Shown here in pieces: positions 14,019-36,267 of a stretch of DNA of 64,000 bases (position 1 is the stretch's first letter; each line of letters begins with the position of its first letter). The notes under the pieces are model-generated. The model saw only the letters and a program-made list of their open reading frames with translations. It was not told the DNA's origin and searched no databases. Source of the stretch: Candidatus Latescibacterota bacterium. GTDB lineage: Bacteria > Latescibacterota > UBA2968 > UBA8231. The position numbers were made by a program, and so were the translations under genes. Location: the NCBI GenBank assembly GCA_965243025.1, contig CBDETY010000003.1, positions 5,280,001 to 5,344,000 on the forward strand. The letters are read 5' to 3'.

Positions 14019-14801
14019 TCACTCCCTCGGCAACGCCCGCAGCAATCCCCGCTCGATCAGCCCCCGGAAATGCATCGTCACGCTCGCCGCCAGGGCGCGG
14101 TCCCGCACCACCAGCCCCATCTCGATGTTCCGGTCCAACGCCGCCTCGGTCAGGTTCGCCGAGGTGATGAACACCGACTCTTCATCCGCCACCACCGCCT
14201 TGGCATGCAGCACACCCGCAGGGCCGTCCGGCTCGAGTGACCTGGGATCGTAGAACACCTCCGGGCGCCGCTCTCCCGGCCAGTCCTCGGACCAGAAGCG
14301 GTCGGCGAACCGCCTCACCAGATGTTCCTGCTCCGTGGTATCCCTGTCGCCGCGCTGGACGTTGAGCAGCAGTTTCACCTGCAAGGTCTCCACTTCGTCC
14401 ATTCGCTTCGCCAGCACCTCGAAGGCCCGCTGTCCATCGAAGTAGGCGTACGTCGACGCCCAGACCGACTTCACCGCTTGGCCCAGCATTTCCTCGTACA
14501 CCCGCCGCGTGTCCCTGGCGTGCAGCCCCGGCACTTCCGGGCCCGACCAGACCAGATCCGGTGCAGGCACCCGGGCTACCCCCTCTTCGACCGCTCGGAT
14601 CCAGGCACCTGCCGCCTTCCCGTCAATACCATTGGCGCTCAATTCTTCCACTAATGCGATCACCTCCCCGGCCCCCTCGCGCAGGTTGAGCACCGAATTG
14701 ACTGCGGCAGCTGTGCAGGGAAGCGGCAGCATGCCCGACTCCAGTGCGCTAGCCAGGCCGCGGCGCACGTGGGCGGGAAGTCGAAACAGGGATTCGGTCA
14801 C
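14019..14801 (-). CDS. drmC: DISARM phospholipase D-like nuclease DrmC
   Basis: LVWSGP, single HKD motif (LHAKAVVAD) and TSANLT...NIEMG; GTG start overlaps the drmB stop. Confidence 0.9.
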   Translation of the reverse strand: MTESLFRLPAHVRRGLASALESGMLPLPCTAAAVNSVLNLREGAGEVIALVEELSANGIDGKAAGAWIRAVEEGVARVPAPDLVWSGPEVPGLHARDTRRVYEEMLGQAVKSVWASTYAYFDGQRAFEVLAKRMDEVETLQVKLLLNVQRGDRDTTEQEHLVRRFADRFWSEDWPGERRPEVFYDPRSLEPDGPAGVLHAKAVVADEESVFITSANLTEAALDRNIEMGLVVRDRALAASVTMHFRGLIERGLLRALPRE

Positions 14802-16588
14802 CCGGGCGGCTCGAAGAAAGCCGCGCCCGTCACTCCCATGACCGGCACGACGAGGGCGCGGTCCAGGTAGTCGTTCCGCATCTCGCAGGAGGTCTCCGCC
14901 ACGAGAGCGCATCCATGGCAGGCGGCACCGTGAAGCAATCTCCCTTCGATGCTTTCACCCGGCTGGTGGTGTGCGCAGATCGGGTCGTTCGAGCACAGCT
15001 CGCTCATGAGAAGCGCCTGGAACAGGTGGTCCTCGATGTGCCGGCCCTGCTGGACCAGACCGCCGAGAGTCCCTTCCGCGTCCGGGCTTGCGGTGTAGAG
15101 GAGCAGGCCGTAGTCCTCGCCCGAACCGCCGACGTAAATCCGTTCGCGGATCGAGCTCGCGGGATATCCGCAGCGCATTGCCAGCGACTGGATCATCAGA
15201 TGGGAGAGCGAATGCAAAAGCAGGTACGGACCTCCCGGGAAGGGCCTTTCCAACTCCCGCTTCTCCATCCAGCGCCGGTGTCCGCGTTTCAACTGATCCA
15301 ACCGTTCCTGGACGGTATCTCTCGCGAGCCATGCCCGCACCGCTTCAGGACGAAGCTGCAGGAAGATCCCTTCCCCGCGGTTTTCCGTAGCTGGAAACCA
15401 CTCCGGCTCCACGGCCAGCTGTGCGAGCTCAACGTCGGTGTCGTACTCGCCGTTGATGTCCGGCATCACCGCCTCGAACCGGGAGAAAGCTGTCAGCGCC
15501 CGCACTTCCCGCAGCCGGTGCAGTTGGATCACGGCGGCGATTCCAGAGGAGAATTCCGAACTTCGCCAAAGCGGCTCCGGAAGCCGCCGGGCGTGAAAGT
15601 CCGGATCGACCGGCACGTCGTCGCCGTGTCCCTCGGGCGCGGCGAGGATGGCCTCCAGCTCGACCTGTTTCACGGGACGGTCTTCGCTGCTTCCGGTCTT
15701 GATTTCCCTGATGGCCTGGAGGACTTCCTGGTCGTCGAAACCTGCGAGGATCTCGGCGACCTTCGGCTTCCTCTTCACGAACGCCAGCTCTCCGGCTTCC
15801 TCGACTATCGACAGGTCGTCCCAGAGTTCCCGCACCGCCTGCCCGACGTCGCTTCCCCGGTCCGGAAGGGAGAGCACGCTGACCACCTGCGGGAAGTAGG
15901 CGTTGGAGGCCGTCCGGATCAGGAGCCGGCTCGGCTGACCGCAGGCCTCGTTGGCATTGCGTCCCAGCCAGGGTCTGGCCCCCTGGCAGGTACCGAGGGG
16001 ATTCATCTCCAGCTGCGTTGCCTCCGACAAGCTCCTGCGCTTCCCGCATCCACACCGGACGACCAGGTCCCCAAGGTCTCCCCCGGTACTGCGCTCATCC
16101 AGCCACAACTGCCTCTTGCAGGGGAGGCTCCCTTTATGCACGAAGTACCACCAGTCCAGGTCGTCCACATGTCCGTTCGGGCATGCCCGGACAAATCGGG
16201 TGGCGACCACCTCGTGGCCGTCGAACCGCCCCCTCTGATCCAACCCCTTTCGATGCACCAGCCGGCGTGATTGCTCCCGGTTGTCGCCATCTCCCCCTTC
16301 CTGCACAACGAACCACTCGGGAAAGCGCCAGACCCCGATTCCCCTGACGGGCTGGCTCGGATCGGTCGACTCCGGCGGCGGCGCGTACAGCCTCGGGGCC
16401 GCCACACCGGTCATGTTCCGGACTTTCCGCTCCAGTCTCGGCTCCAGGATTTCTTCGAGGTCGCCGGTCCTCGGCCAGCTATCCAAACCGCCGACAATCG
16501 CGGAGTCCTGGGGCAGATCGATCAGCGCCCCGGGCCCGAAGCTTGTGATAACTTGGCTGCTGCGGATCTGTCCGTGCGCCTGGTTCAT
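14798..16588 (-). CDS. drmB: DISARM DUF1998 protein DrmB
   Basis: RSSQVITSFGPGA, LLHSLSH, GTLGGL and Zn-binding CSNDPIC...ACHGC...SCE; 4-bp overlap with drmA. Confidence 0.92.
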   Translation of the reverse strand: MNQAHGQIRSSQVITSFGPGALIDLPQDSAIVGGLDSWPRTGDLEEILEPRLERKVRNMTGVAAPRLYAPPPESTDPSQPVRGIGVWRFPEWFVVQEGGDGDNREQSRRLVHRKGLDQRGRFDGHEVVATRFVRACPNGHVDDLDWWYFVHKGSLPCKRQLWLDERSTGGDLGDLVVRCGCGKRRSLSEATQLEMNPLGTCQGARPWLGRNANEACGQPSRLLIRTASNAYFPQVVSVLSLPDRGSDVGQAVRELWDDLSIVEEAGELAFVKRKPKVAEILAGFDDQEVLQAIREIKTGSSEDRPVKQVELEAILAAPEGHGDDVPVDPDFHARRLPEPLWRSSEFSSGIAAVIQLHRLREVRALTAFSRFEAVMPDINGEYDTDVELAQLAVEPEWFPATENRGEGIFLQLRPEAVRAWLARDTVQERLDQLKRGHRRWMEKRELERPFPGGPYLLLHSLSHLMIQSLAMRCGYPASSIRERIYVGGSGEDYGLLLYTASPDAEGTLGGLVQQGRHIEDHLFQALLMSELCSNDPICAHHQPGESIEGRLLHGAACHGCALVAETSCEMRNDYLDRALVVPVMGVTGAAFFEPPG

Positions 16589-19500
16589 CTGTCCGTTTTT
16601 TCCCGGGCTCCACCCAAGTCTTTCAGGAACAGGTTCACGTTGGGCTCAACGTCCCTCATGGAACGGTTTGCCCGGAATTTCGCGTGGTGCTCGGTTTCGA
16701 AATCCTTGTCGAGGATTTCGCGAAGCAACGGCCGTGGCCGCCGTTGCCCCGGGATTTCGTAGCGCTGATACTGGACCTCGACTCCGGCCGACTGGTAGTC
16801 GTCGATCACCTTGGTCCAGGAGTCGAGCAGGTCGACGACGCGGTTCTGCACGCTGCGCAAATACTGTTCGCGCTCTTCCTCGTCCGTGATCGGCTGGCTC
16901 CGCACCCGTTCGAGGAAGGCATCGAGCAGCATGGGCTCCAGTTCAGCCCGGATGTCGCCGATCCGTTTCACTTCCATTGCCGGCGTCAGCTCGGCCCGCC
17001 CGTGCCGGGCGAGCGTTACCAGGGCCCCGGCGAACCCCCTGTCCAGGGCGCGGGCCGAAAACGGCGTGACGCTGCCGACCTCGACGGAGCGGTAGAAGGT
17101 CTCGTGGTAGTGGCGGAAACGCTCGTAGTGAGATCGGTCCCTGGGCTTGTGGATGTTGAGCAGACTAACCACCAGGCCGGGCCGTTCGTCGTCGCGGCCG
17201 ATCCGGCTGGTGGCCTGGATGTACTCGTCGTGGCGCAGGGGCTGTCCGAGCACCACCATCAGACCGAGCCGTTGAATGTCCAGCCCCACGGAGATCATGT
17301 TGGTGGCGATTGCGCAGTCGACGCGGTCATTCTCGTGGAAGCCCAATCCCAGCCGCCGGCGGGCTTCGGCCACCTTGTCCGTGGAGACGCGCGACGTCAG
17401 CTCCACCACCTCGGAGAAGGTTCTCCGGTCCCGGAACAGCCCGGTCGTTTCACCGATTCGCTTGCGGATTCCGTACCCCTTGATGGTGTTCTGGATTTCC
17501 TCTTCGAGGATGCGCCGGGCGCCGCCCAACTCCTTCAGGCTGTTGAAATAACCCAGCACCGTCATGTACGGGTCGGCGGGGTTCTCTTCGTTGCGGCGGC
17601 CCCCCGCTTCCATGTAAGCCTTCTGGGCGGTTCCCATGAGCGCCAGCCACGCCCGGCGCATAAGCACCTTCGGGTTCCTGCCCTGGGCGGCGATTCCCAC
17701 GTATACCCGGCCCGGCACCTTGGAGGTCGTTTCCGTGCGAGCAAAGAAGGAGTCGCGCCGGTCTGGCCCGGGGGCGGGGAAGACCTGTGTCAGCGAGCGG
17801 CCGAATAGCGCCTGGATCTGGTCCTGCGCCTGCCTGACGGTGGCTGTGGAAGCAATGATCTTTGGGCGAAAGGCATTCCCTCCGGTCCCGCGCACGCAAA
17901 GAGCTTCGATCGCCGCTTCGTACAGTCCGGCAATCGTTCCCAAAGGCCCGGAGATCAGGTGCAGCTCGTCCTGGATCACCAGGTCGGGGGGCAGCAGCGG
18001 AGCCGGCAGCCGGGTTGCTCTTTCTGTATCCGTGGCGCCGTAGAACCCCCTCCCGTCATATCGGTCCGCCCCGCCGAGAAGACCGCCGGAGGGTCCCATC
18101 CAGGGCAGCGATGCGAACTTGTCCACCGTGGCGATCAGAAAGGCCGGCAACCTCCGGTAGATCGGCTCGTCCACGGCCAGGATCGGCAGCGCACGGTCGC
18201 CGCTGAACTCGCACTCGAAGTTCATGCACACGATGCGCAACTCGCGCGGCTGGTCATCGTTGGGAAGCAGCGCGAACGAGTCGGGTCCGAACGGTTCTCC
18301 GCACCAAGGGCAGCTCTCCAACGGGACCGGCGACGGCTTTCCTCTCGGGTCTGCTTTGTACTGCCTGACCTTGGTGCGCGCCGAATCCGACCGGCCGTCA
18401 CCTTTTTTCCCGAGGAGGTTGGGCGTTGCCGCCTTGCCCACCCAGAGCCCGATCTCGAAGGGCCAGTCGCCGTAGCGGCCTTCCGCCTCGGTACGCTCCA
18501 GCTCCAGTGCACAGACCAGACCCGAGGCGCGCGCGAGCTGATCGAGGGTCAGAAGTCGCAGGGTGTAGCGCATGATCACGCTTACGCCGGCGCCGGCCCG
18601 TCCCTGCGCATCCGGATGGCGCAGTCTTCTCAGCACCATGGCAAACGCCGCAAGGCCGAGATACGCTTCGGTCTTTCCGCCGCCGGTGGGGAAGAACAGC
18701 AGGTCGACCGTTTCGCGATGCTGGTCGGCAGGGTCAATCAGCCCGGGGAGATTCAGCAGGATGAAGGCCAGCTGAAAAGGCCGCCAGCTCGGCTCTTCGA
18801 TTTCCAGACGCTGGCGGAGCGCCCGGGCAACTGCCCGGTTAGCCACCCGGAAGGAATCGAGCGCGTCTTCGTCGGCCGCCAACACCGCGATCCCTCGCCC
18901 GATCCGGTCAGCTGCGAGGTCTGCCAACCGCAGCAGTTCTACGGCTGTCTCACGCCGCGTATCCTCCAAGTCCTCGACGCTCTCCCGCCGGGCAAGAACC
19001 CAGGCGCGGTACTGGTCGACGAGGGGCCGTAAAGCGTCCTCGGCTGCCGCCCCGTCGGGCAGCGAGCCAAGGGTTTCCATGGCCAGTTCGACACCCGGCA
19101 CCTCGGCGGTCTCCGTCTTTTCCACCTCGGCACGGGGGATCCACGCAGTCCGCAGGAGGTGACACTCCCCGTCGAGGATCTCCCAGTCTGCCGATACACC
19201 ATGGCCAGTAGCGTACGAGGGTGTGTCCGAGTAATGGAGATCGGCCACTCGATCATCCCACTGATTCGCGCGCGTTCCCCGCAAATCCGGCCGCGGAACA
19301 AACGGGCGCCCACCGTCGACTTCAAGCTCAGGCTGAAAGACATAGGCGCGGTCTACATCGGTCTCCAAAGGGGCCCGGTTGTTGACCAGAAAAACGGAAA
19401 CCGACCGCGTCCCAGGGGGTATGTGTTCTTCGAGGTCCTGCGCGACGACCCTGCGCTGGACAACATGGAGCTGGAGACCGCCCGACTCCGGGACGTCGCA

Positions 19501-19992
19501 GACAACAGGGTCCTCAACTTCGGTGAGTTTGAGGGTGACCTTTTGCACCCGGGGAGTCCGTTGCCAGACTGACTTCTCGTCTTCTTCGTCTTCGATCTTT
19601 ACCGGTTCATAGTCCCCCCAGGAGGCGGTTACCTCGAGTGAGTCCGTTTCCCCGGGAACGAGGAAGCTCAGCCCCATGGAGGAAGGGAAGTAGCCCTTCT
19701 TGGCGGCCTTTCTTTCCTCGTTGGACTCCTCGGCAAGACCAGTGGACTCAGGGACTTCCCCGTCCATGTCGTCATCTTCGTCCGCGTCGGCACTCGTATC
19801 AGCCGCAGACCCGGACGGGATCAGGAAACCGGTCAGATACCAGTTCGAGGGTCGTATCCACCCCGGCAGGCGCTCGTCGGCCAGGGGATGGCCGACCCAA
19901 GGCCCTACCAAATCGAGGTTCAGGGCCTCAATCAGACGGCCTCGTACTTCCAGGGAGGTACTGGGAGCGCGGTTTTTGGAATTGCTCGCCAT
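16585..19992 (-). CDS. drmA: DISARM helicase DrmA
   Basis: FPTGGGKTEAY, QDELH, ASTAT, ATNMISVGLD and YIQATSRIGR; adjacent to drmB. Confidence 0.92.
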   Translation of the reverse strand: MASNSKNRAPSTSLEVRGRLIEALNLDLVGPWVGHPLADERLPGWIRPSNWYLTGFLIPSGSAADTSADADEDDDMDGEVPESTGLAEESNEERKAAKKGYFPSSMGLSFLVPGETDSLEVTASWGDYEPVKIEDEEDEKSVWQRTPRVQKVTLKLTEVEDPVVCDVPESGGLQLHVVQRRVVAQDLEEHIPPGTRSVSVFLVNNRAPLETDVDRAYVFQPELEVDGGRPFVPRPDLRGTRANQWDDRVADLHYSDTPSYATGHGVSADWEILDGECHLLRTAWIPRAEVEKTETAEVPGVELAMETLGSLPDGAAAEDALRPLVDQYRAWVLARRESVEDLEDTRRETAVELLRLADLAADRIGRGIAVLAADEDALDSFRVANRAVARALRQRLEIEEPSWRPFQLAFILLNLPGLIDPADQHRETVDLLFFPTGGGKTEAYLGLAAFAMVLRRLRHPDAQGRAGAGVSVIMRYTLRLLTLDQLARASGLVCALELERTEAEGRYGDWPFEIGLWVGKAATPNLLGKKGDGRSDSARTKVRQYKADPRGKPSPVPLESCPWCGEPFGPDSFALLPNDDQPRELRIVCMNFECEFSGDRALPILAVDEPIYRRLPAFLIATVDKFASLPWMGPSGGLLGGADRYDGRGFYGATDTERATRLPAPLLPPDLVIQDELHLISGPLGTIAGLYEAAIEALCVRGTGGNAFRPKIIASTATVRQAQDQIQALFGRSLTQVFPAPGPDRRDSFFARTETTSKVPGRVYVGIAAQGRNPKVLMRRAWLALMGTAQKAYMEAGGRRNEENPADPYMTVLGYFNSLKELGGARRILEEEIQNTIKGYGIRKRIGETTGLFRDRRTFSEVVELTSRVSTDKVAEARRRLGLGFHENDRVDCAIATNMISVGLDIQRLGLMVVLGQPLRHDEYIQATSRIGRDDERPGLVVSLLNIHKPRDRSHYERFRHYHETFYRSVEVGSVTPFSARALDRGFAGALVTLARHGRAELTPAMEVKRIGDIRAELEPMLLDAFLERVRSQPITDEEEREQYLRSVQNRVVDLLDSWTKVIDDYQSAGVEVQYQRYEIPGQRRPRPLLREILDKDFETEHHAKFRANRSMRDVEPNVNLFLKDLGGAREKTDR

Positions 19993-20066
19993 CAGGAGAA
20001 CCAGTCATCTACAAACCAAGAAGGTGGTGGGTGCCCAGTAGTCAGTACATACACAGACGGAATGGA

Positions 20067-21359: not shown

Positions 21360-21365
21360 CGTTCG

Positions 21366-22520: not shown

Positions 22521-22533
22521 TCGTAAGTCCGGG

Positions 22534-22917
22534 TCAGGGATTGACAGACAGGGCCAGTGGGACAGGGTCGAAGTTGGCACCGCGCCACCAGGACACGTGG
22601 CCCGACTTCCCGGGGGTTTTCTTGGTGAGGCCCGCCGCCGGAGGAAGATTCAGTGAAACGATGGAACCGCCCTTGAATCGAGGCAATTTCAACAATTTAA
22701 TGGCGCTCTTCCGGACGAGAAATAGCGATACGGCACGTGCCTGACACTCCGGTACCGAAAAAGGTCGTTTCGGGTAGAGTGACCTCTGCGAAATGAAATC
22801 GCAGTCGGTGGGGGGGATCGCCCGAACAACGCGAAAGTGCGGTTCAGGAACTGGTGCACCGGCGTCTTTTGGGGGGCAGTCATCCGGAAGTTCTTCGTAC
22901 CAGCCGTTCTCAGCCAT
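22534..22917 (-). CDS. Small hypothetical protein (127 aa), possibly ADP-ribosyltransferase-like fold
   Basis: CPPKDA, HFRVV, ARAVSLF and GHVSWW; co-oriented and closely linked to the downstream gene. Confidence 0.6.
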   Translation of the reverse strand: MAENGWYEELPDDCPPKDAGAPVPEPHFRVVRAIPPTDCDFISQRSLYPKRPFSVPECQARAVSLFLVRKSAIKLLKLPRFKGGSIVSLNLPPAAGLTKKTPGKSGHVSWWRGANFDPVPLALSVNP

Positions 22918-23060
22918 CCGTCACCCAGCCTAGTTTCGCAAGTACCAGCCGCCCCAGAAAAGGCTGTCAACGAGAGAATCGCCTCTTCCGTAATTCGCAT
23001 TCAAAAGGCGGTGCCCACCGGTCGGCACGACGATGGATGGCTCGACCACATGCAGGGTTG

Positions 23061-26647: not shown

Positions 26648-26752
26648 TCAGGATTCCCCGTTCAGACTCGCGTACTTGAAATCCCGTCCCAGTCGATGTG
26701 CTCGACAAACATCCCATCTCCCTCCAGGTAGACGTGCAATCTCAACCGTCTC

Positions 26753-27250
26753 TCAATTCTCATTTCGAATTCTAATTGCTTCCTCAACAGCGTTCGCAAG
26801 GTGCTCAGAAATCCAAGCATATCGCTCTTTGCTGTTACTCCCGCCGGGATTGTAACACTTGACAATTGAGGAAAGCCTATTGCCTGAACTTCCATGGGTG
26901 ATGAAATCGAACGGATTTTTGCCAAGTGATGAAACCATTCCGTGGTAGTCCTTCAATCCGTGAATGCGGATTCCGACTACCCCCATTCCATCATCCCAGG
27001 ATTTGATAATTTCGTGGTTGATCCATTTACGATTTGCCGTATCGGATCCGACTAATACGACCGTACAGGAACGGTACATCATCTGACCCGCAATCCATTT
27101 CCTTATTGCAGTATCGCCTCCTTTCTTAACTGTCTCCCAGTCGTTATCTGTCGCGGGTCTGTTTCCTTCTATGCTGCCGATATTGCGGACCATCCCTGCC
27201 CGCCAGTTGTCTGGGTTGTAGTGGAAGCTGTAAAACACTCTACGAGCCAT
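26753..27250 (-). CDS. TIR-like protein (DUF1863/MTH538, Thoeris ThsB-like)
   Basis: RVFYSFHY, DNDWE, SCTVVLVG and RKWINHEI (conserved catalytic Glu), GIRIH. Confidence 0.85.
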   Translation of the reverse strand: MARRVFYSFHYNPDNWRAGMVRNIGSIEGNRPATDNDWETVKKGGDTAIRKWIAGQMMYRSCTVVLVGSDTANRKWINHEIIKSWDDGMGVVGIRIHGLKDYHGMVSSLGKNPFDFITHGSSGNRLSSIVKCYNPGGSNSKERYAWISEHLANAVEEAIRIRNEN

Positions 27251-27662
27251 TAGGTTGTTCTCCGGAAACATTGATGACTACCAAGACAATCGCGATGATG
27301 AGAGCCCCATAGAACGGAACCAGGGTTATCGAAAAGGTCGAGCCAAGCCACGAGCGCTTCCAACCGGTTCGGAACGAAGCGGTGGCCATTGAAAAGTCGA
27401 CTTCACTTTCGTCTATTGACCGGACGCGGTCGTATAGCGCCCGAAACAGGCGTTCCTGCCACAGGTAGTAGCCGTCAAGTCCCCAGAAGACGAGGACAGG
27501 TACCAATGCAATGTAGGCAACATCGAGGCGGTCCTCCTTCGCCAAGAGAACGAACAGGGCGGTGACCAAAACAACGGTCCACCCTTTCACTCGGAATGAG
27601 TCGGTCGCTAGGCGGTTGACTACTCCTTGGATCAATTCAAGATGCTTTAGCTTCGATTCCAT
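27240..27662 (-). CDS. Small integral membrane protein (about 3 TM segments) coupled to the TIR gene
   Basis: KHLELIQGVVNRL...KGW, three hydrophobic segments and YYLWQERLFRALYD; 11-bp overlap with the TIR gene; ATG at 27662 after CAGGA. Confidence 0.8.
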   Translation of the reverse strand: MESKLKHLELIQGVVNRLATDSFRVKGWTVVLVTALFVLLAKEDRLDVAYIALVPVLVFWGLDGYYLWQERLFRALYDRVRSIDESEVDFSMATASFRTGWKRSWLGSTFSITLVPFYGALIIAIVLVVINVSGEQPNGS

Positions 27663-27804
27663 TGCTATTTCCTGCGGGGATGAATGGCTTGTTCGATTCG
27701 ATGGTATTTGCTGTCGCCCGGGCGCCCTGCTCGCAGTTGCTGGTTCGACTTGGCAAGGACTTTGATCGGTTTCGTACCGTTCTTGACTCCCAGATAATTT
27801 CCCC

Positions 27805-28824: not shown

Positions 28825-28945
28825 CAGTCAGTCTCCTTCTAGGAAATCACTATTCGTAATCCAGATGCATTACTTCGAGATTCACATCGCTCTGGTCAAG
28901 GGGTGTCGACCTGTCAAACAACCCCAGAAAAATGACCCAAGGGCA

Positions 28946-31900
28946 TTACTCGTTATCGTCGTCTTCCCAGTAGGCTGGTTTGGTGCCTGTCTCTCGTTTG
29001 GGGCGCTTGGCGTTCAGTTCGAGAAGCCGCGCCAGCACCTCGTCCCGGATGTCGTCGGGCCAGCGGCAGCGGTAGGGCTTTTTTCGGTTGCCCCACTCTT
29101 CCTCGTCGATCTCGTAGTCGAGGAGGAACTGGCAGTCGGTGGGGATGTCATTCCAACCATAGGCATCGAGTACGACCCGGTCCATTGCGGCGTGGAGATC
29201 GCGGAGCTTGGCGATGTCGCGGTCGTCTTCGTCAGGGTCGTGGAAGCGGTTGTAGGTCTTGGTCAGGCCTTCGTCGTTACGGACCATGAGGTTGGCCCGG
29301 AAGTCGTAGTAGGTCTGGCCGGCGGCTTCAAGGCCAGATTGAGTAGCCCAACCCTCGGGGAAGGGGAAGGTCTCGAAGCAGTCGGAAGGTGAGTAGTTGA
29401 TGTCATCCTTCATTGTAGAACTGAAGAACCTGGCCCATATCTCATGGACGTTAGACTGGAGAACACAGAACGCAGAATATTCCTGAAATGGGAAAATGAC
29501 CAGTTTGTGGGAAGGGAGCATCCCTTTCCCAAGAAATGCGAAGTGGATCTTGTTGCTGATGATTCCGCACACGAGATAGCGGTTCAGTCCCGAAATAGCT
29601 GACCGAAGCTGGGGGCGCTCGTTAGCGTACTGCCACCAACGTTCCCTGTGTGAGCGGTCAATTGGCGACTTGCCGAGTTCGTCTCGTGCGGGTTTGACCC
29701 GCTCCTCTACGATCTCCAGCAGACTGGGCCAATCCGCTGCTACCGGATCTGGATAGTCGAGTGGTACGATTCCCTGCCTCAGCCATTCGCGACGCTGACC
29801 TTCGTCCGCGCCTATCCACCGAGCGTCTAGATCTTCCTTGCGCAGTGGATAATTTTGAAAGTTTATCGCATAGCGATGATGCATGTGAGTCGGGCTGGTG
29901 TTCACCTCTTCACCGCCAATATATGGAAAGATCACCTTCTGGTTCTGCGGGTTCTGTTCGACTAGGCGGTGCATCTCCGCCACGGATGAGGCGACATTCT
30001 TCCTGTCGGTGTCGTCGAAGGTAAAGCCCATGCCTCGGAGAAACACCCCCACGAAGCTCTTGCCGGTGTTCTCCCTGACCCGCTCCGGGTCATCGTTCCC
30101 GCCGCGGTGAAAGAGGAAGGCGGTGATAGTCTCAACCACGTCTCCATCGAGTCGCTTCGTTTCGATGTGCCGTCCCTTATGGACGTGGAGAATACTGACC
30201 ACCACGGCGGCCTGACCCGGCCACTTGACGCGCCGACGGGCACGGTAAATGTCCCCACCGTTCCCACAAATCCAACGCAGGCCGCTGGCGCGGGTATCGC
30301 CTTGGGCGATGGTGTTGGTAGCGATCAGGCCAAAGGCGCCGTTTGGGCGGATCAGATCGTAGACGCGTCGGAAGAAGTGTGCCACGAGGTCGGCATTACT
30401 GTTCGAGTGCAAGTGGACTGATGCAAGCCAATCGCGATATCCGGCACCAAGGACCGTGCTAATCCGCTTCCCTCCGAGGAACGGAGGATTCCCGACGATG
30501 CCGTCGAACCCCGGATTCTTCCGGTCAAACACCTCCGGGAACTCGATCTCCCAGTGAAAGGGGGCCAGCGGCGGGTCCGCACGGCGCTGCTCCTCAAGCC
30601 AGCCGCGGTGCTGATCTGCCCTTCGCTCGTAAACGGCAGTGGCGTACTCAACCCGTTTAGTCTCCCGCTCCTTCGCTTTGGTCCCCTCGAAGAAGGCGGC
30701 CGTCACCAGATCGCCGAAGAGGCTGATCTTGCCAAGCTCGAAGCGGGCTTCATCCCACCAATCATGCAGTTCCCGATCCGCGACCTCGTCGCCTGCCTCA
30801 CGGATCCGCCGTCGGAGTTGGGCTACCTTGGCGATCTGGCGGTGTACTTCCGTGGTCTCGAACCCCAGGTCGGCCTCTTCCGCACGGCGATCCCAGTGGA
30901 AGACTTCTATCTGCTTCCGGGACAGCCCGACCAGCGAGTCCCCGTGCCGCAGGGCGTGGTCGATGAATGTCAGCGGATGGTCCTTGGCCAGGGTCGCTAG
31001 CCATAGCGAAACCTTGGCGAGGTCGACCGCCATGGGGTTCCGGTCCACTCCGTACAGGCAGCGCTGTGCGATCAACCGGCGGGCGAAGATTCCCTCATCC
31101 TCGTCAGGCGGGATTCCCGGAATCTCGCCGTGGGCGCGCCAAGCCTCGACAAGAGCGTCGCCGAGCTGGCGGCAGGCCTCCACCAGGAAGGCCCCCGATC
31201 CCATGGCTGGGTCGCATACCTTCAGGTCCAGAATTTTTTCAGGCCGCGGCGGCTTCCCGTCCTCTCCCTGAAGCCGCGCCAGGATAGGCTCCAGGGTCGT
31301 CCGCACGATCGGCTCCGTCAGCTCGCGCGGCGTGTAGTGCGAGCCGGAGCGGCGCCTTTCTTCACTGGGTTGCAGCACCATCGCTCCCTGGGGCACTAAG
31401 TCGGGGGTGGCATCGACCTCGATCACCGGGCTGAGGGCCGCGTGCAGGTCCTCCAGCGTTCCGGCATCCTTCACCGCTTTCCTGATTTTGTCTCCGAGCT
31501 TTCGGTCGGCGTGGTCCCGGAGCCACTTGTCGCGCCGGGCACCCGGCTCCGCGGCGAGTGCTTCGAGGTCCACGGTTGTAGGAGCGCCCTGCTTCTTGGC
31601 CGCCTTGATCGCCACGGACCTCCCGCTGGCGGTTTCCAGGCGGAAACCCATCATGGTCTCGTAGACCGAGCCGATCTGCTCCACGTCGAGGGCCCGGTAG
31701 GAGAGCCGCTCGCCGTCGAGGACCAGCAGCTTCTCCAGGGCGCGGTAGATGGTGCCGTCCGATACGAGCGGCGGCTCGATGCGCTCGTGAATCTGGCGCG
31801 CCACCATGTCCGGCCGGCCTTCGAGGAACGGGAACCGGTCCGGGTCGAAGAGGACACCGTGCCGCCTGGGCAGGGTCATCTCCCCGGTTTCGGCGCCGTC

Positions 31901-32968
31901 GTGAATCAGGCGGAAAAGCACCAGCAACTGCGCCCAGGCACTGAAGCGCTGGTCCATGGTGTCGGGAAACAGGGCCGCGTCCTCACGCAGGCGCTCGTAC
32001 AGTCCCACGAGGGAGTAGTAGCGCTGGAAGGTCTCGTCCTTCGGCAGCATGTCCCGCTCTTCGGCGTAGAGCAGGAACACGAGCCGCAGGTTCACGGTCA
32101 GCAGGGCGTGGTAGACGCGGTCGGGATTGTCCGCGAGGGTCTGCCGCAGCAGCTCTCCCTTCGATGCGTCGTGGGCGGCCTGGAATCCCCGCAACATCTC
32201 ATACAGGGCGTGGAGCACCTGCTCGGCTAGCCGCTCGCTGACCTCGTTCTGGAACTTCCGGCTGTCCTCGAGCAAGGCGGCCAGCCGCTTGGAACTGGGC
32301 AACGATAACAGCCGGCTTTCCCTCAACAGCAGGCGCATGGCGGTGCAGATCGGCCTGCCGGAAGTCTGCACCATCTCCGCCACGCGGAAGTCCATCCAGC
32401 CGGAGCTTTCACCCCGGGGCGCCGAGATCAGCCGGATCGACAAGCCGTTGAACAGCAGACCAGCCTTTACCTCGGTGCGGCGGAGAAGTCGCTCCATCCT
32501 GCTGTGGGGAGAGGCCTCGAGCGCTCCTGAGCCCTTCACCTCTTTATCGAAGTCCTGCCCCGGTTCCAGGACCTGTACGAGGAGCTGCCAGTGAGACTCC
32601 CCTTCCCGGGGGCTCCGCTCGCGAACGGCGAAGTCGGGGGCGAGGGTTTCCCCATCTGCGGTGGTTACTACGAGCTCGTCAGGGATGGGACTTTCCGCGG
32701 TGCCGGCGTAACCCTTGGGCGAGAAGTTCCATTCGAGAACGGTCCTCGCGAAAGCCTCGAAGTCCGGCAACCACGGCACCGGATCGGCATCCTGCAGGAG
32801 CGTCCTCTCCTCGACGCAGTCACGCAGCCGTCGCTGCCCTTCGGCGTCCTGCCGGTCAAGTATGGCACCTGCCCGCACCAGGGCCGGCGCGGAGACGACA
32901 AGGCCGCTCGGCTGGACGAAGCCGATCCACTCGAGGTGCCTGAGTATCTGCGGGTCCAGCTTGGCCAT
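28946..32968 (-). CDS. drmMI: DISARM class 1 N6-adenine DNA methyltransferase DrmMI
   Basis: GSHYTP, CDPAMGSGAF, GNPPF and C-terminal TRD with FETFPF; ATG at 32968 directly after the drmD stop. Confidence 0.9.
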   Translation of the reverse strand: MAKLDPQILRHLEWIGFVQPSGLVVSAPALVRAGAILDRQDAEGQRRLRDCVEERTLLQDADPVPWLPDFEAFARTVLEWNFSPKGYAGTAESPIPDELVVTTADGETLAPDFAVRERSPREGESHWQLLVQVLEPGQDFDKEVKGSGALEASPHSRMERLLRRTEVKAGLLFNGLSIRLISAPRGESSGWMDFRVAEMVQTSGRPICTAMRLLLRESRLLSLPSSKRLAALLEDSRKFQNEVSERLAEQVLHALYEMLRGFQAAHDASKGELLRQTLADNPDRVYHALLTVNLRLVFLLYAEERDMLPKDETFQRYYSLVGLYERLREDAALFPDTMDQRFSAWAQLLVLFRLIHDGAETGEMTLPRRHGVLFDPDRFPFLEGRPDMVARQIHERIEPPLVSDGTIYRALEKLLVLDGERLSYRALDVEQIGSVYETMMGFRLETASGRSVAIKAAKKQGAPTTVDLEALAAEPGARRDKWLRDHADRKLGDKIRKAVKDAGTLEDLHAALSPVIEVDATPDLVPQGAMVLQPSEERRRSGSHYTPRELTEPIVRTTLEPILARLQGEDGKPPRPEKILDLKVCDPAMGSGAFLVEACRQLGDALVEAWRAHGEIPGIPPDEDEGIFARRLIAQRCLYGVDRNPMAVDLAKVSLWLATLAKDHPLTFIDHALRHGDSLVGLSRKQIEVFHWDRRAEEADLGFETTEVHRQIAKVAQLRRRIREAGDEVADRELHDWWDEARFELGKISLFGDLVTAAFFEGTKAKERETKRVEYATAVYERRADQHRGWLEEQRRADPPLAPFHWEIEFPEVFDRKNPGFDGIVGNPPFLGGKRISTVLGAGYRDWLASVHLHSNSNADLVAHFFRRVYDLIRPNGAFGLIATNTIAQGDTRASGLRWICGNGGDIYRARRRVKWPGQAAVVVSILHVHKGRHIETKRLDGDVVETITAFLFHRGGNDDPERVRENTGKSFVGVFLRGMGFTFDDTDRKNVASSVAEMHRLVEQNPQNQKVIFPYIGGEEVNTSPTHMHHRYAINFQNYPLRKEDLDARWIGADEGQRREWLRQGIVPLDYPDPVAADWPSLLEIVEERVKPARDELGKSPIDRSHRERWWQYANERPQLRSAISGLNRYLVCGIISNKIHFAFLGKGMLPSHKLVIFPFQEYSAFCVLQSNVHEIWARFFSSTMKDDINYSPSDCFETFPFPEGWATQSGLEAAGQTYYDFRANLMVRNDEGLTKTYNRFHDPDEDDRDIAKLRDLHAAMDRVVLDAYGWNDIPTDCQFLLDYEIDEEEWGNRKKPYRCRWPDDIRDEVLARLLELNAKRPKRETGTKPAYWEDDDNE

Positions 32969-32970
32969 GC

Positions 32971-35900
32971 TCAGTTGGTCTCCGGCCACAGGTAGGCCAG
33001 GCCGACGGGCTCAACCCGGGTTGCCCGCACCTCGTAGAACTCGCGTATGCGGGCGGGTTCGACTTCAAGGTCCTTGTCGAACTGTTCGAGACGCCGCCGC
33101 CACCCCCGCATGTTCGCTTCGACTTGGTCCCGCTCCTCCTTTTCGAAGCCCAGGGTCAACTGCTTGTAGTCGCCGCGGTCGTACCTCGCGAGTTCCTCTA
33201 CCACTCGTTGGCGCTGGCGCTCCAGCGTCGTCCGCAGATCCTGCTCCTCCCGGGTGCCGCGCTCGGCCAGACGCTTAACCGCGCTGGCGGCCAGCTCCTC
33301 CGCCCGCGGCTCCAACTGCGGCAGCAGTTCCTCGATATCCTGCGCTGCGGTCTCCAGAAGCCGTTCCCGGATCGTCTCGTGCGGCAGGCGCATCCCGTTT
33401 CCGGTCAGCGCTTCCTCAAGCAGGTCGAGCGTCCGCAGCTCGGTTTCCCGGGCATACGCCCGGAGGGGCCCTTTTCGCTTCGAAGCCTCGACCCATCTCG
33501 CGGCAACCGGAACCAGCTCTTCGTGCAGGCGCTCGGCTCCGCGTCCGTACAGCGAAAGCCGTCCGAGCAGGATAACGCGCGGTATCGAATCCCTGGCCTG
33601 CGCCAGGCATGCCCGCGACAGGTCGTTGTAGATAAAGCCCTGGGCCCGGAACCGGGCTAGCAGCCGTTGTGCCACGCGCTGCTCCAGGTGCAGGTGGACG
33701 CTGTCCTCGGTGACCGCGCCGGGGTCCTCGAACACGACCGGCCGAATCGGCGCCTCCCGGCGCCAGTCGGTTACCTTCTGATCCGGCTTCTTTGGCTGTC
33801 GCAGGGTATCGAGGGTGGACGACCAGCTGGCGTCCGTTTCCGCCCTCTGGTCGAGAGCCGGAAACTCCCAAACCCGTCGTCCCTCCTGGTCGCGAGTCTC
33901 CTCCAGCGGATCCGCCCCCAGCAGTTCGAGCGAGCAGGAAAGCGCATCCCGGAAGGCTCCTTCCTCGAAGCGGACCCATCCGCGCGAACCCTGGAGCAGT
34001 GACTGGCAGCGGGCGATCTGATCCTTCAGGTCCTCCTGGCGCTCGCGGGCGCCCTCCAGCTCCTCTTCTGCGACCCGCTTCCGCTCCTCGTCCAGATCGG
34101 CATTCTCGATCTCTTCAGCGAGCTGGGCGGCGGTCGCGTGGCGGATACCGCCGCGAAGCAGCCGTTCGACATCGTCGTCGATGACCTTCGACAGGCTGCC
34201 CAGCTCCCGCTTGATCCTCTCCGTTTTCCCGACCAGCACCCCGAGAACTCGGTCCTCCGCCCGCTGGGGCAGGACGAAGTAGTGGCAGCGCACCTCCCGG
34301 GCTGGCTGCAGCTTGCGGTCGATGCGGCCGTTCCTCTGCTCGATCCTTCCCGGGTTCCAGGGCAGGTCGAAGTGGAACAGGTCGGTGCAGTGGGCCTGGA
34401 AGTTCAGACCTTCCCGCGCCGCATCCGTCGCCAGCAGAATGCGCAACGGGTCCTTGGCGGGATGGGTGTTGAAGCGCTTCTGGATCTCCCGTCGATTCTT
34501 CGAGCTGACCAGCCCGTCAATCACCTCGATGCGCTCATCCGCAAGGTCCGTTCCTGCGATCGCTTCCTCCAGGATGTTCCGCAGGTAGCGCTTGGTGCCT
34601 TCCCGGTTCTCGGTGAAGATCAGCACCCGGCGGTCGTTCCAGGGGACCGGCTCACCCTGCGCCAGCTCGCCGAAGGCAGGCAGCCCGGGGCAGAGGTTTT
34701 CCCGTATCCAATCGATCAGCCGCCGCACCTTGGCGTCGGGCAGGTACCGCGACTCCTCGGCGATTTTCTCCATCCGGTCCAGAAGCTTCTGTTCCCGGCG
34801 CCACAGCTCTTCGGCCCTTTCGTCTCGCGCACCCCCTTCCTCGGCCGCGACCGTCATCGCCTCGACCTCGGCCTCTTCTTCGGCTTCCAGCTGATCCTCT
34901 TCCCACTCCCCCCGCTCGTCATCGGAGTCCGGCGCCGTCCGCAGCAGGCTGTCCTGCTCTTCGGATTCGGGAATCTCGGCTGCGGCTTCCTGCTCACGTT
35001 CCCACTGCTTCACCACGGTGCGGCGATGCACCTTGAGGGTGCGCGCGAAAGCCTCGATGGAGGAGAGCAGGCGTTGCTGCAGCCCGACGACGAGCAGCCC
35101 GGCCGCGGCCTTGGCCCTCCGCGAGGTCGTCGCGTGCCGCTCCTCCCGGGCGGTGCGGTACCGATCGAGCAGCTTCGACAGAAGGATCTCGGGGGCGTCG
35201 GGCGGCAGGTTGTCGATCTCCAGCCTCTCGACATTGCGGCTGGGGAATCCCCCCTGGATCTCCCGGATGTCCTCCTTGAGGCGGCGCACCATCACCTCCT
35301 CGAGCTCGCTCTTTCCGCGGATCTTCACCCCGCGCGTGAACCGGTACGGGTCGAGCAGTTCCAGCAGGGTGGAGAAGCTGTTCGAGTGGCCGTTGTGGGG
35401 TGTGGCGGAGAGGAACAGTCGATGTTCGAAGCGGCCGCACAGGTCCCGGACGGCGCGCGTGAACTTGGTCTCGATCCCGTAGCGGCCCCCGCTTGAAGGT
35501 GCCGCGTGGTGGGCTTCGTCGAGGATCAGCAGACTCCCCGGCAGCAATCCTCCCAGCCATTCCCGCATGGGATCGGCGTAGGTGGGATCGATGAGGAGGT
35601 TGTGCGAGATCAGGAAACGGCTGTGCGTCCGCCACGGGTTCACCCCGAACCCCCGCTCCCGGCGAACCCGCGCCAGGTAGCGCCGGTCCAGAATCTCGAA
35701 GACCAGTCCGAAGCGCTCCTCCAACTCCCCCCTCCACTGCTCGAGCACCGAGGGGGGAGCCGATACCACGATTGTCTTGGCCTTCCTTCGCAACAGCAGC
35801 TCCCGGGCGATCAGGCCTGCCTCGATCGTCTTCCCGAGCCCGGTGTCGTCGGCGATGAACAGGTTCACCCGGGGCAGGCGCAGGGCCTTGCGCAGGGGCT

Positions 35901-36267
35901 CCATCTGGTAGGCGTCGATCTTGATGCCGGCGCGGAATGGGGACTGGAACAGGTTAGGGTCGGTCGCCGTGACGCAGTTCCAGCGCAGGGTGTGGAGGAA
36001 GGCGGCGAAGTGCCGGGGTGAGTCGAACCCTTTCGACGCGAGATCCGCCCAGCCCTCTTCCTCGAGAATCAGGCGGTCGATCTCGTAATCCCAGTAGACT
36101 TCGAGCTCCTGGCCCTGGGCGTCGTCGTCGGCGCAGGCGAGGCGAACGCGAGGTGATGCCGCTCCGTTGGCTACCACCTCCTCGACCAACCAGCGGCGGG
36201 AACGGACCAGGACCAGCTGACCCGGTTCCGGAGGTGTTTCGGGCAGGTTCCTTGTAATAGATGTCAT
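32971..36267 (-). CDS. drmD: DISARM SNF2-like helicase DrmD
   Basis: ADDTGLGKT, DEAHH, SATPHNG, TDAAREGLN and EQRNGRIDR. Confidence 0.92.
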   Translation of the reverse strand: MTSITRNLPETPPEPGQLVLVRSRRWLVEEVVANGAASPRVRLACADDDAQGQELEVYWDYEIDRLILEEEGWADLASKGFDSPRHFAAFLHTLRWNCVTATDPNLFQSPFRAGIKIDAYQMEPLRKALRLPRVNLFIADDTGLGKTIEAGLIARELLLRRKAKTIVVSAPPSVLEQWRGELEERFGLVFEILDRRYLARVRRERGFGVNPWRTHSRFLISHNLLIDPTYADPMREWLGGLLPGSLLILDEAHHAAPSSGGRYGIETKFTRAVRDLCGRFEHRLFLSATPHNGHSNSFSTLLELLDPYRFTRGVKIRGKSELEEVMVRRLKEDIREIQGGFPSRNVERLEIDNLPPDAPEILLSKLLDRYRTAREERHATTSRRAKAAAGLLVVGLQQRLLSSIEAFARTLKVHRRTVVKQWEREQEAAAEIPESEEQDSLLRTAPDSDDERGEWEEDQLEAEEEAEVEAMTVAAEEGGARDERAEELWRREQKLLDRMEKIAEESRYLPDAKVRRLIDWIRENLCPGLPAFGELAQGEPVPWNDRRVLIFTENREGTKRYLRNILEEAIAGTDLADERIEVIDGLVSSKNRREIQKRFNTHPAKDPLRILLATDAAREGLNFQAHCTDLFHFDLPWNPGRIEQRNGRIDRKLQPAREVRCHYFVLPQRAEDRVLGVLVGKTERIKRELGSLSKVIDDDVERLLRGGIRHATAAQLAEEIENADLDEERKRVAEEELEGARERQEDLKDQIARCQSLLQGSRGWVRFEEGAFRDALSCSLELLGADPLEETRDQEGRRVWEFPALDQRAETDASWSSTLDTLRQPKKPDQKVTDWRREAPIRPVVFEDPGAVTEDSVHLHLEQRVAQRLLARFRAQGFIYNDLSRACLAQARDSIPRVILLGRLSLYGRGAERLHEELVPVAARWVEASKRKGPLRAYARETELRTLDLLEEALTGNGMRLPHETIRERLLETAAQDIEELLPQLEPRAEELAASAVKRLAERGTREEQDLRTTLERQRQRVVEELARYDRGDYKQLTLGFEKEERDQVEANMRGWRRRLEQFDKDLEVEPARIREFYEVRATRVEPVGLAYLWPETN

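Follow-up and report, generated by a model that had tools for sequence, protein, structure and literature searches.

A class 1 DISARM locus interrupted between drmMI and drmA

The window analysed here is a 64,000-nucleotide stretch of a Candidatus Latescibacterota genome (contig CBDETY010000003.1, positions 5,280,001 to 5,344,000), whose minus strand carries, in order, drmD, drmMI, eight co-oriented and AT-richer genes, drmA, drmB and drmC (Table 1). Class 1 DISARM is described as drmD-drmMI-drmA-drmB-drmC (Aparicio-Maldonado et al., 2021, bioRxiv 10.1101/2021.12.28.474362), an order and strand preserved in the window save for the eight genes that interrupt the drmMI-drmA junction. The interruption separates drmMI from drmA by 8,953 nt, counted from stop to start. 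The original prediction had placed here five intact DISARM genes and eight further AT-rich genes at 20067-28824, and both statements hold, coordinates and strand included. DrmD, DrmA, DrmB and DrmC score above their NCBIfam cut-offs; for DrmMI none of the NCBIfam models exceeded its own cut-off, and the protein is identified by its PADLOC model, with positions 9-1317 of 1347 covered.

Family profiles together with a motif check found all five open reading frames to be full length and their catalytic motifs to be kept. DrmD has GLGKT at residue 143 and DEAH at 250; DrmMI, with the Pfam domains Eco57I, MmeI_Mtase and MmeI_TRD, has the SAM-binding DPAMGSG at 593 and NPPF at 834; DrmA has the Walker A motif GGGKT at 437 and DELH at 675; and DrmC, a PLDc_2 protein in Pfam whose family matches begin near residue 40, has the HxK(x)4D motif at residue 236 in the form HAKAVVAD. 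DrmB carries the Pfam MZB zinc-binding domain, and the start of its gene overlaps the drmA stop.

Table 1. Features of the DISARM locus and its insert, in gene order, with positions in the window
Feature	Position	Strand	Description	Supporting match or observation
drmD	32971..36267	-	SNF2-like helicase, 1098 aa	NCBIfam NF038317 1031 bits (cut-off 610); PADLOC DrmD E=0
drmMI	28946..32989	-	N6-adenine methyltransferase, 1347 aa	PADLOC DrmMI E=0
C1	27805..28824	-	DUF6236-like, 339 aa	nearest Atlas clusters DUF6236, score 0.98
C2 (PDC-M50A)	27240..27662	-	small protein, three hydrophobic stretches, 140 aa from Met at 27662	PADLOC PDC-M50A E=2.9e-47
C3 (PDC-M50B)	26753..27271	-	ThsB-like TIR protein, 172 aa	Pfam ThsB_TIR E=3.9e-26
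gajA	24950..26647	-	Gabija ATPase-TOPRIM nuclease, 565 aa	PADLOC GajA E=4e-198
gajB	23061..24953	-	Gabija UvrD-type helicase, 630 aa	PADLOC GajB E=6.2e-235
C6	22534..22917	-	127 aa, conserved upstream partner of DUF6575 genes	tblastn neighbourhoods
C7	21366..22520	-	DUF6575 family, 384 aa from Met at 22520	Pfam DUF6575 E=1.4e-7
C8	20067..21359	-	430 aa, N-terminal hydrophobic segments and pentapeptide-repeat domain	Pfam Pentapeptide E=2.2e-29
spacer before drmA	19993..20066	-	24-codon open frame ending ...DDWFS	stop overlaps drmA ATG (TGATG)
drmA	16585..19992	-	helicase, 1135 aa	NCBIfam NF038325 1136 bits (cut-off 950)
drmB	14798..16588	-	DUF1998 protein, 596 aa	NCBIfam NF038324 562 bits (cut-off 240)
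drmC	14019..14912	-	phospholipase-D-type nuclease, 297 aa (longest ORF)	NCBIfam NF038319 165.5 bits (cut-off 133)

A scan of base composition and codon usage bears out the AT-richness of the cargo: its G+C content is 0.545, whereas the DISARM halves on either side have 0.643 and 0.647 and the flanking regions 0.671 and 0.687. The G+C of third codon positions (GC3) follows the same pattern: 0.52-0.70 in the cargo, the Gabija genes lying above the others, 0.78-0.83 and uniform across the DISARM genes, and about 0.9 in core genes. At both borders of the insert the composition shifts sharply.

Known and uncharacterised modules of the insert

The eight genes can be grouped into C1, a PDC-M50 pair, a Gabija pair and the run C6-C7-C8, with spacers of 105-143 nt between these modules. 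The genes first described as Gabija-like constitute a complete Gabija system, in which both proteins are full length and the gajB start overlaps the gajA stop. GajA aligns over residues 1-564 with positions 1-567 of the 569 in the PADLOC model and combines the Pfam domains DUF2813, AAA_15 and OLD-like_TOPRIM with a Walker A motif, GENNSGKT; GajB matches its PADLOC model over the full length and contains UvrD-helicase and UvrD_C domains with the motifs GPGSGKT and DEYQD.

The TIR gene of the original prediction is likewise present. Its product is matched by the PADLOC models for both ThsB (E=4.5e-67) and PDC-M50B (E=3.7e-63), and in the PDB by 8wcf_A (E=7e-33) and the ThsB structures 6lhy and 9b7d (E=1.5e-24), with Glu87 aligned to a conserved Glu; translation likely starts at 27250. 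The adjacent PDC-M50A gene extends as a longest open reading frame to 27863, the PADLOC match spanning residues 68-197 of that long frame, and its start is better placed downstream at 27662, as is that of the DUF6575 gene at 22520. PDC-M50A also matches phrog_19896 (E=2e-40), and its hydrophobic stretches were read off the translation. An assignment to Thoeris was rejected: among the 13 proteins scanned with PADLOC there was no ThsA match, only the ThsB-like TIR protein, which fits the PDC-M50 candidate. A literature search for the name 'PDC-M50' found no paper using it; we take the PADLOC candidate set to which it belongs to be the one added by the study of Payne et al.

The remaining genes are, in our view, modest new leads. 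C1 gave no match to Pfam or PADLOC at default thresholds, and its score against Pfam DUF6236 (PF19749; E=0.021, 14.5 bits) lies below the gathering score of 26.2; we call it DUF6236-like on account of the Atlas feature similarity and one homolog carrying PF19749. Its 772 homologs reach 92% identity, and one at 44% identity stands alone on a Rhodococcus plasmid. Its AF2 model (pLDDT 77.7) found no fold match in the PDB (best E=0.033). C6 matched no family in any profile search run, including Pfam, PADLOC and NCBIfam, and tblastn returned three plasmid matches, each immediately preceding a DUF6575 gene or a C7 homolog. The C6-C7 pair is hence conserved elsewhere, and in the 5-8 kb of flank examined around the plasmid homologs of both C1 and this pair, DISARM genes are absent.

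C7 exceeds the gathering score of Pfam DUF6575 (PF20215; 31.6 bits against 26.6), with only residues 13-77 covered, and has 915 representative homologs. Its AF2 model (pLDDT 91.1) matches the PDB only locally, to OB-folds at E about 0.01-0.06, which points to a possible C-terminal OB-fold, and in BFVD a phage DUF6575 protein is a full-length relative (E=1.8e-26). DUF6575 appears among the domains listed for validated systems (Vassallo 2022). C8 begins 6 nt after C7, and its hydrophobic segments, read off the translation, lie at about residues 45-66 and 78-97. None of its 2416 homologs in the protein collection exceeds 51% identity, whereas DrmA relatives reach 84-93%, and we found no case of C8 beside a C7 homolog elsewhere.

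The drmMI-drmA junction across DISARM relatives

The original prediction regarded the interval between drmMI and drmA as a variable cargo slot, and a catalogue of this interval in relatives supports that reading. From 537 DrmA relatives in genome contigs the best 80 were kept, and 54 of these loci showed both the end of drmMI and the start of drmA, so that the junction was measurable; the nine closest DrmA relatives (84-93%) lie outside the set inspected. By tblastn ends, drmMI and drmA are more than 500 bp apart in 27/54 loci. The corresponding figures are 5/43 for drmD-drmMI, 1/75 for drmA-drmB and 0/64 for drmB-drmC, or 6/182 pooled (Fisher p=4e-15, a significance that is overstated since the loci are not independent). 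Measured from stop to start, the distance exceeds 400 nt in 26/54, is 25 nt or less in 17/54 (12 of them exact 4-nt overlaps) and falls between 26 and 400 nt in 11/54. In unoccupied relatives the drmMI stop overlaps the drmA start, and in nine of them DrmMI ends in ...[LF]FS and its gene overlaps drmA at an ATGA; the two genes are thus translationally coupled where cargo is lacking. Annotated plasmid DISARM loci show both states, with four of the six examined occupied at this junction and two having the 4-nt overlap. The preference for the drmMI-drmA junction is itself a modest new lead.

Occupied junctions, present in roughly one relative in two, carry 0.7-8 kb of unrelated genes, most of them of defence type and most running in the same direction as DISARM. 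A PADLOC defence match (E<=1e-5) was obtained in 18 of the 27 occupied slots, several of these being weak or partial (L019, L051, L069, L075), and the other nine have none. The matches include DarG, GmrSD-type enzymes, AbiL with an LmuB-like ATPase, a CBASS cyclase with a 2TM effector, PDC-S01, PDC-S02, PDC-M11 and kinases. Slot genes were called crudely, as longest open reading frames: the first such frame in L003, L033, L048 and L075 is an in-frame extension of DrmMI, and drmA is not one open frame in L054 and L075. Of the 38 frames with any family match across the 27 slots, Pfam identifies a single one as a transposase fragment and none as housekeeping, and 33 are co-oriented with DISARM. 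The content is therefore neither invariant (27/54 junctions are empty or short, 27/54 filled with differing genes) nor mostly unrelated to defence. The G+C of the slot is lower than that of drmA in 26 of the 27 occupied relatives and equal to it in one.

Turnover is evident in the DrmA tree, where the occupied or empty state changed at least 13 times, nine of the changes being forced by well-supported branches, and in sister loci with differing cargo (L003/L028, L041/L042, L043/L051). No homolog of any cargo gene of the window was found in the slots of the 80 loci.

The border of the insert offers some indication of how it arose. The C-terminal tail of the window DrmMI ends in ...KPAYWEDDDNE, without the LF ending of relatives, which lies within the last eight residues in 25/54 and is kept in 12/26 occupied ones. 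In the nearest relative, L005, the DrmMI tail is also truncated and is followed by a 355-nt AT-rich spacer. The 24-codon frame ahead of drmA is probably a relic of the original end of this tail, as a weak resemblance over about five residues suggests. The insertion may have struck the last codons of drmMI, giving DrmMI a new ending and leaving the short relic before drmA. The cargo would have been acquired horizontally, on two or more occasions; Gabija has the higher GC3 noted above. A domain search found no recombinase in the island, there are no flanking repeats around the insert, and the slot spacers share no motif and fold no better than shuffled sequences. An integron-like cassette array was rejected, as there is neither a recombinase domain nor attC-like structured repeats between cassettes. 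Given that recombinase, flanking repeat and attC-like site are all wanting, recombination within, or adjacent to, the conserved drm genes on either side is the probable route by which the cargo was exchanged. One may speculate that the conserved LF ending, with which a K/R-rich tail closes, serves as a docking motif for a partner; it resembles sliding-clamp-binding motifs and has been lost in the window DrmMI. Rather doubtful is the broader proposition that the drmMI-drmA overlap is a dedicated exchange point, with cassettes swapped by recombination in the low-complexity end of the drmMI tail, and that C1, the C6-DUF6575 pair with its possible nucleic-acid-binding OB-fold and the membrane-anchored C8 are new anti-phage systems expressed with DISARM.

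A proposed layered defence, alternative readings and precedents

Taken together, these features point, with a probability of roughly 0.8, to an intact class 1 DISARM with other defence modules nested at the drmMI-drmA junction, a preferred embedding site. DISARM would act as the first, methylation-based barrier between self and non-self, and behind it the nested modules would each form an independent second line. Gabija would contribute a nuclease-helicase system and PDC-M50 the NAD+ chemistry of a TIR domain paired with a membrane partner; C1 (DUF6236-like), C7 (DUF6575) and C8 (pentapeptide) would be candidate further modules. The original prediction also put forward the unknown genes as possible abortive-infection backups for DISARM, a role that is hypothetical. 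The whole set would be passed on together with DISARM and may be co-transcribed with it; promoter and terminator scans of the locus gave nothing above shuffled controls.

DISARM could suffer from the loss of the overlap, from the missing LF ending and from the roughly 9 kb of foreign DNA that precede drmABC. Pressed further, they would mean that the insertion crippled the system and that a decaying DISARM became a landing pad on which only the cargo modules function, an idea consonant with the truncated tail and long spacer of L005 and with the 'genomic sink' mentioned by Payne et al. (10.1101/2024.01.29.577857). We consider this unlikely: all five genes retain full length, scores beyond the curated cut-offs (PADLOC for DrmMI), catalytic motifs and a uniform GC3, and the LF ending persists in nearly half of the occupied relatives, so that an arrangement this common is hard to square with general inactivation. 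Still less probable is that the cargo encodes accessory subunits modulating DISARM, such as sensors or effectors recruited by a DrmAB complex. The strict co-orientation and tight spacing would suit it, as would the published physical coupling of PrrC inside a type I restriction system (10.1101/2024.01.29.577857); however, by definition Gabija and PDC-M50 are each a separate system, C1 and C6-C7 have the DISARM-free plasmid neighbourhoods noted above, and sister DISARMs differ in cargo. An assembly artefact, or the chance juxtaposition of a drmD-drmMI pair with a separate drmABC triplet, might explain the abrupt compositional borders and is very improbable. The window contains no N, the contig on which its DrmA is recorded measures 6.78 Mb, each border lies in a short intergenic stretch with intact genes to either side, and the same split recurs in independent assemblies, both in the surveyed loci and in complete plasmids.

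The nested-module reading makes the locus a clear instance of layered immunity in nature: one block of co-oriented genes combines a methylation barrier with a nuclease-helicase system, a TIR system and a further three or four uncharacterised modules. In practice it supplies a short list of candidate defence genes (C1, C6-C7, C8 and PDC-M50) and a mining rule: given a class 1 DISARM, inspect the drmMI-drmA junction, a rule that could sharpen embedding-based discovery. It also raises the question of why a junction that is normally a stop/start overlap tolerates insertion.

In relation to known systems, the window has the genes, order, strand and family scores of class 1 DISARM and differs from it in the separation of drmMI and drmA and the unusual DrmMI ending. 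Its Gabija copy is typical in its full-length, overlapping gajA-gajB pair and its ATPase, TOPRIM and UvrD motifs, and atypical in being nested in another system; it is recognised here by sequence. The TIR protein resembles ThsB in both models and solved structures, unlike Thoeris in that its partner is a 140-aa membrane protein and not a ThsA of the SIR2/SLOG or Macro type. Like PrrC in EcoprrI and BrxU in BREX, cited as embedded backups by Payne et al. (10.1101/2024.01.29.577857), the cargo would be a second-line defence inside a restriction-type operon; for those two, coupling or complementarity was proven experimentally, and for the window it is predicted from sequence.

The closest precedent is the embedding described in that study (Payne et al., 2024, 10.1101/2024.01.29.577857) for DISARM, BREX, type I RM and Hma under the phrase 'guilt by embedding': DISARM 'frequently contained embedded genes', embedded genes were co-oriented in 96.7%, and they are viewed as defence candidates and possible backups, Gabija being named as one. 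The window shares with these cases co-oriented, largely known or candidate defence genes that are nested in a methylation-based system and vary among relatives. Its stack is large: the eight genes form four or five modules, and the Hma survey of that study capped embedded genes at three per gap. As to the DISARM junction at which embedding occurs, we found nothing in the main text of that study; the drmMI-drmA preference and the normally overlapping stop and start come from the present survey. The nesting is thus real and recurs in relatives, and is of a kind already published, of which the window is a large, clean example.

The DISARM island and its cargo

The window carries a 24.8-kb island of lower GC3, set within flanks of about 0.67–0.69 G+C between an aldose 1-epimerase gene and a LigD–Ku pair, whose minus-strand order is drmD, drmMI, eight more genes, drmA, drmB, drmC and two ORFs without assigned function. 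The curated models recover DrmD (1031 bits against a cut-off of 610), DrmA (1136 against 950), DrmB (562 against 240) and DrmC (165.5 against 133), the PADLOC DrmMI model matches over the whole length (E=0), and all expected catalytic motifs were found in these proteins. Judged by its sequence, the locus is an intact class 1 DISARM in the sense that Aparicio-Maldonado et al., 2021 (10.1101/2021.12.28.474362) give in their introduction, in keeping with the original prediction that its five genes look intact. That prediction had also described an AT-rich insert of eight genes between drmMI and drmA, including Gabija-like and TIR genes, and this too is borne out: the 8,953 nt from the drmMI stop to the drmA start have a G+C of 0.545, versus 0.64–0.65 in the DISARM halves, and encode a complete Gabija, with GajA and GajB both full-length, as well as a ThsB-like TIR protein.

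Spacers of 105–143 nt divide this cargo into four blocks, namely the C1 gene, PDC-M50, Gabija and the trio C6–C7–C8, the last with internal gaps of only 13 nt (C6–C7) and 6 nt (C7–C8). C1 (339 aa, 772 homologs) lacks any above-threshold family; its nearest Atlas clusters are DUF6236, for which the Pfam match reaches only E=0.021, and its fair structural model (pLDDT 77.7) matched no fold in the PDB (best E=0.033, TM 0.18). PDC-M50 pairs the TIR protein, whose Glu87 aligns with a conserved Glu of a solved TIR structure, with a protein of 140 aa that has three hydrophobic stretches; as no ThsA is present, an assignment of this block to Thoeris was ruled out. C7 belongs to the DUF6575 family, with 915 representative homologs and a full-length relative in a phage genome. 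Its model (pLDDT 91) ends in a barrel weakly resembling OB-folds, with local PDB matches only (E≥0.01); a C-terminal OB-fold predicted in this way counts as a lead rather than a result. Vassallo et al., 2022 include DUF6575 in their list of domains from defence systems recovered by experimental selection; the text and two supplements of that study did not show which system contains it, and C7 matched none of the PADLOC models for its systems. C6 has no family match, and PADLOC, NCBIfam and PHROGs returned nothing for C1, C6 or C7. Since all three plasmid matches of C6 (in Oscillatoria, Rhodococcus and Parabacteroides) are followed immediately by a DUF6575 gene or C7 homolog, C6–C7 is a conserved gene pair without a name. 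C8 joins N-terminal hydrophobic segments to pentapeptide repeats and has 2416 homologs, none above 51% identity; in the literature on defence, such repeats were found only in a phage anti-defence protein and in domain fusions, and in no validated defence system. The GC3 of Gabija (0.64–0.70) differs from that of the other cargo (0.52–0.62), which suggests that the cargo was gained in more than one acquisition.

Several further features of this neighborhood deserve mention. The LigD–Ku non-homologous end-joining pair directly adjoins the island on the opposite strand, and a nucleotidyltransferase/HepT-like toxin-antitoxin pair, in which the first gene gives a match to PDC-S09, a PADLOC candidate (E=6e-30), also lies in the window. 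Between drmC and the two downstream low-GC3 ORFs, which have no homologs among the 80 related loci considered below, lies a 30-nt inverted repeat with 83% complementarity and 108 nt between its arms. The 450-aa ORF shows weak RmrA/Peptidase_M78-like matches only (E=9e-4 and 0.059); beyond this hint, PADLOC, NCBIfam and PHROGs gave nothing for either ORF. Within drmMI, a patch of low GC3 (0.56–0.65; DrmMI residues about 976–1225) covers the predicted target-recognition region, with an MmeI_TRD match at 1150–1212, and GC3 returns to about 0.8 across the final 150 codons; this suggests that the specificity domain was exchanged separately, as a mosaic.

Positions of features in the window, in related DISARM loci (L001–L080) and in plasmid loci (L083 and above)
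Feature	Locus	Position
Nucleotidyltransferase/HepT-like pair	window	3413-4097
Aldose 1-epimerase gene	window	10753-11904
Two ORFs downstream of drmC, same strand (450 aa and 123 aa)	window	11981-13683 and 13637-13804
drmA start	window	19992
Spacer before drmA with a short open frame, the possible relic	window	19993-20066
C8	window	20067-21359
C7	window	21366-22520
C6	window	22534-22917
C1	window	27805-28824
drmMI stop	window	28946
DrmMI end without [LMF]F	window	28946-29010
Low-GC3 patch in drmMI	window	29300-30060
LigD–Ku pair	window	36844-40259
C6-like gene just upstream of DUF6575 gene (unrelated plasmids)	L083	5001-5645
	L084	4995-6632
	L085	5001-6208
DrmMI extra C-terminal domain	L003	7364-8155
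	L033	4306-4761
	L048	5397-5795
	L075	6065-6673
Truncated DrmMI tail and spacer	L005	9648-10003
DISARM nested in CRISPR-Cas locus	L087	185-21414
XRE/ImmA-IrrE-type regulator just upstream of drmA	L088	8373-10001
	L089	8322-9944

The drmMI–drmA slot in related loci

An alignment of 20 DrmA relatives, used to scan one genome per species, recovered 537 relatives, from which the best 80 loci (49–74% identity) were kept and the five DISARM proteins placed in each by tblastn. The drmMI end and the drmA start are both visible in 54 of the 80; six more have 10 kb upstream of drmA without DrmMI, and in the remaining 20 the contig ends too soon. The gap between drmMI and drmA exceeds 500 bp in 27 of the 54 loci (reaching 8.3 kb) and is smaller in the other 27, unlike the remaining junctions, which rarely open to this extent (drmD–drmMI 5/43, drmA–drmB 1/75, drmB–drmC 0/64). 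Measured strictly from stop to start, it is above 400 nt in 26 loci, 26–400 nt in 11 and at most 25 nt in 17, with an exact 4-nt overlap in 12 of the latter. In a small independent check, among six annotated plasmid loci chosen from the matches listed (25 of 74 records), four are occupied at this junction, respectively by an MqsA-type antitoxin with SecB and an IS, a PLD protein with an XRE regulator, an XRE regulator with hypotheticals, and an ATPase with DUF4435, and the other two show the 4-nt overlap. A rarer second slot is seen at drmD–drmMI (L019, L051, L053, L072, L076 and L091); that of Trichormus plasmid C holds three opposite-strand genes, including a GNAT. On a Sphingomonas parapaucimobilis plasmid (NZ_CP155757.1), DISARM is the nested system: cas3 and casA of a type I-E CRISPR-Cas locus enclose a drmC-less DISARM consisting of drmD, a methyltransferase, drmA and DUF1998.

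Crude ORF calling in the 27 slots and the six upstream regions without DrmMI gave 154 ORFs, 147 of which were scanned after seven shorter than 76 aa were dropped. At least one PADLOC match (E≤1e-5) was obtained in 18 of the 27 slots: DarG (L003, L029); GmrSD-type enzymes (L028, L054, L061 and, in part, L041); an LmuB-like ATPase with AbiLi and AbiLii (L033, L048); a CBASS cyclase with a 2TM effector and CapH/CapP-like regulators (L043); PDC-S01 (L035), PDC-S02 (L044, L046) and PDC-M11A (L029); a kinase (L042); and weaker matches in L019, L022, L051, L069 and L075. Pfam adds macro, Mrr, YhcG nuclease, Schlafen/AlbA, RloB, Cap15, DUF4747, HD and XisH/XisI domains, and found in the 27 slots no housekeeping gene and only one transposase fragment (L054). 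In 26 of 27 loci the slot has a lower G+C than drmA, and 33 of 38 slot ORFs that gave a family match are co-oriented with DISARM. In several loci (L029, L043, L073, L088 and L089), an XRE/ImmA-IrrE-type regulator (RmrA- or CapP-like) and, behind it, a small hypothetical gene immediately precede drmA.

On a FastTree phylogeny of the 54 DrmA sequences, slot occupancy must have changed 13 times or more, compared with a mean of 18.3 for shuffled labels; well-supported branches force 9 of these changes. L033 and L048 have cargo in common; the sister loci L003 and L028, L041 and L042, and L043 and L051 carry unlike cargo. In the nearest relatives of the window, L005 and L001, the slot is unoccupied, and no homolog of any of the window's cargo genes was found in the slots of the 80 loci. 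Because DrmA has nine relatives at 84–93% identity in the protein collection but C8 none above 51%, the DISARMs of these close relatives cannot, to judge from such identities, carry the last cargo gene of the window. The original reading of the junction as a variable cargo slot is hence supported: the interval is far from invariant, being evenly split between occupied and empty or short states and different between sisters, and its content is not mostly unrelated to defence. This support does not extend to the suggested abortive-infection backup role, which the cargo may have.

Anatomy of the junction and the DrmMI tail

At its C-terminus DrmMI carries a K/R-rich tail of low complexity, whose final eight residues include an [LMF]F motif in 25 of the 54 loci (DLFS, GLFS, PLFE and similar), an ending which the window's DrmMI lacks and which we take to resemble a short docking motif, for example of the sliding-clamp-binding type. 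In unoccupied relatives of the window's clade, the tail ends in ...[LF]FS and the stop overlaps the drmA ATG. The window's DrmMI shares it up to ...KPA-Y, then ends in ...WEDDDNE, and a 24-codon open frame directly before drmA ends in ...DDWFS, its stop overlapping the ATG. On thin evidence, the cargo may have entered the final codons of drmMI and left this frame as a relic; L053 has a similar one (...SSLF). The end of drmMI and the relic possibly resemble each other over 9–12 nt, too weakly to count as a repeat. What was called as the first 'slot ORF' of L003, L033, L048 and L075 is in fact an in-frame C-terminal extension of DrmMI by 150–250 residues; that of L003 gives a match to the C-terminal region of a model for type I methyltransferases. 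In L005, a truncated tail (...RRAGLNFN) is followed by a very AT-rich non-coding spacer of 355 nt to drmA, which may be a scar of earlier cargo.

No tRNA was found in the whole window and no recombinase or integrase domain in the genes flanking the island; no direct repeats of 16 nt or more bracket cargo or island; and, in a search for integron-like sites, the five spacers showed no common motif and folded no better than shuffles (z −0.3 to +1.3). With neither a recombinase nor a flanking repeat, an attC-like site or a common spacer motif found, we infer that the cargo is probably exchanged through recombination within the conserved genes on either side or close to them. Counts of promoter-like (4 versus 4.2 expected) and terminator-like sites (6 versus 16.6 expected) were uninformative.

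Relation to embedded defence systems

The terms 'embedded' systems and 'guilt by embedding' were introduced in a preprint (Payne et al., 2024; 10.1101/2024.01.29.577857), according to which such genes yielded 145 PDC candidates, are co-oriented in 96.7% of cases, are of unknown function in more than half, and, where they encode systems such as PrrC, BrxU, PARIS or Gabija, may serve as backups; a 2025 review restates this account. The original observation of cargo nested in DISARM is confirmed and its argument that slot genes are defence candidates by association is right, but the latter was already in print, since that preprint states it. In the text consulted, nothing indicates at which DISARM junction the embedded genes lie; the supplements (Figure S8 and Tables S3-8) may name it and may give the origin of PDC-M50. 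The useful leads are the preference for one junction, with its usual stop/start overlap, the C6–DUF6575 pair, the DUF6236-like C1, the pentapeptide gene C8 and the DrmMI tail motif. The novelty of the locus as such is low, this kind of embedding being already known: it is of the same kind as the embedded systems of Payne et al. and an unusually large member among them.
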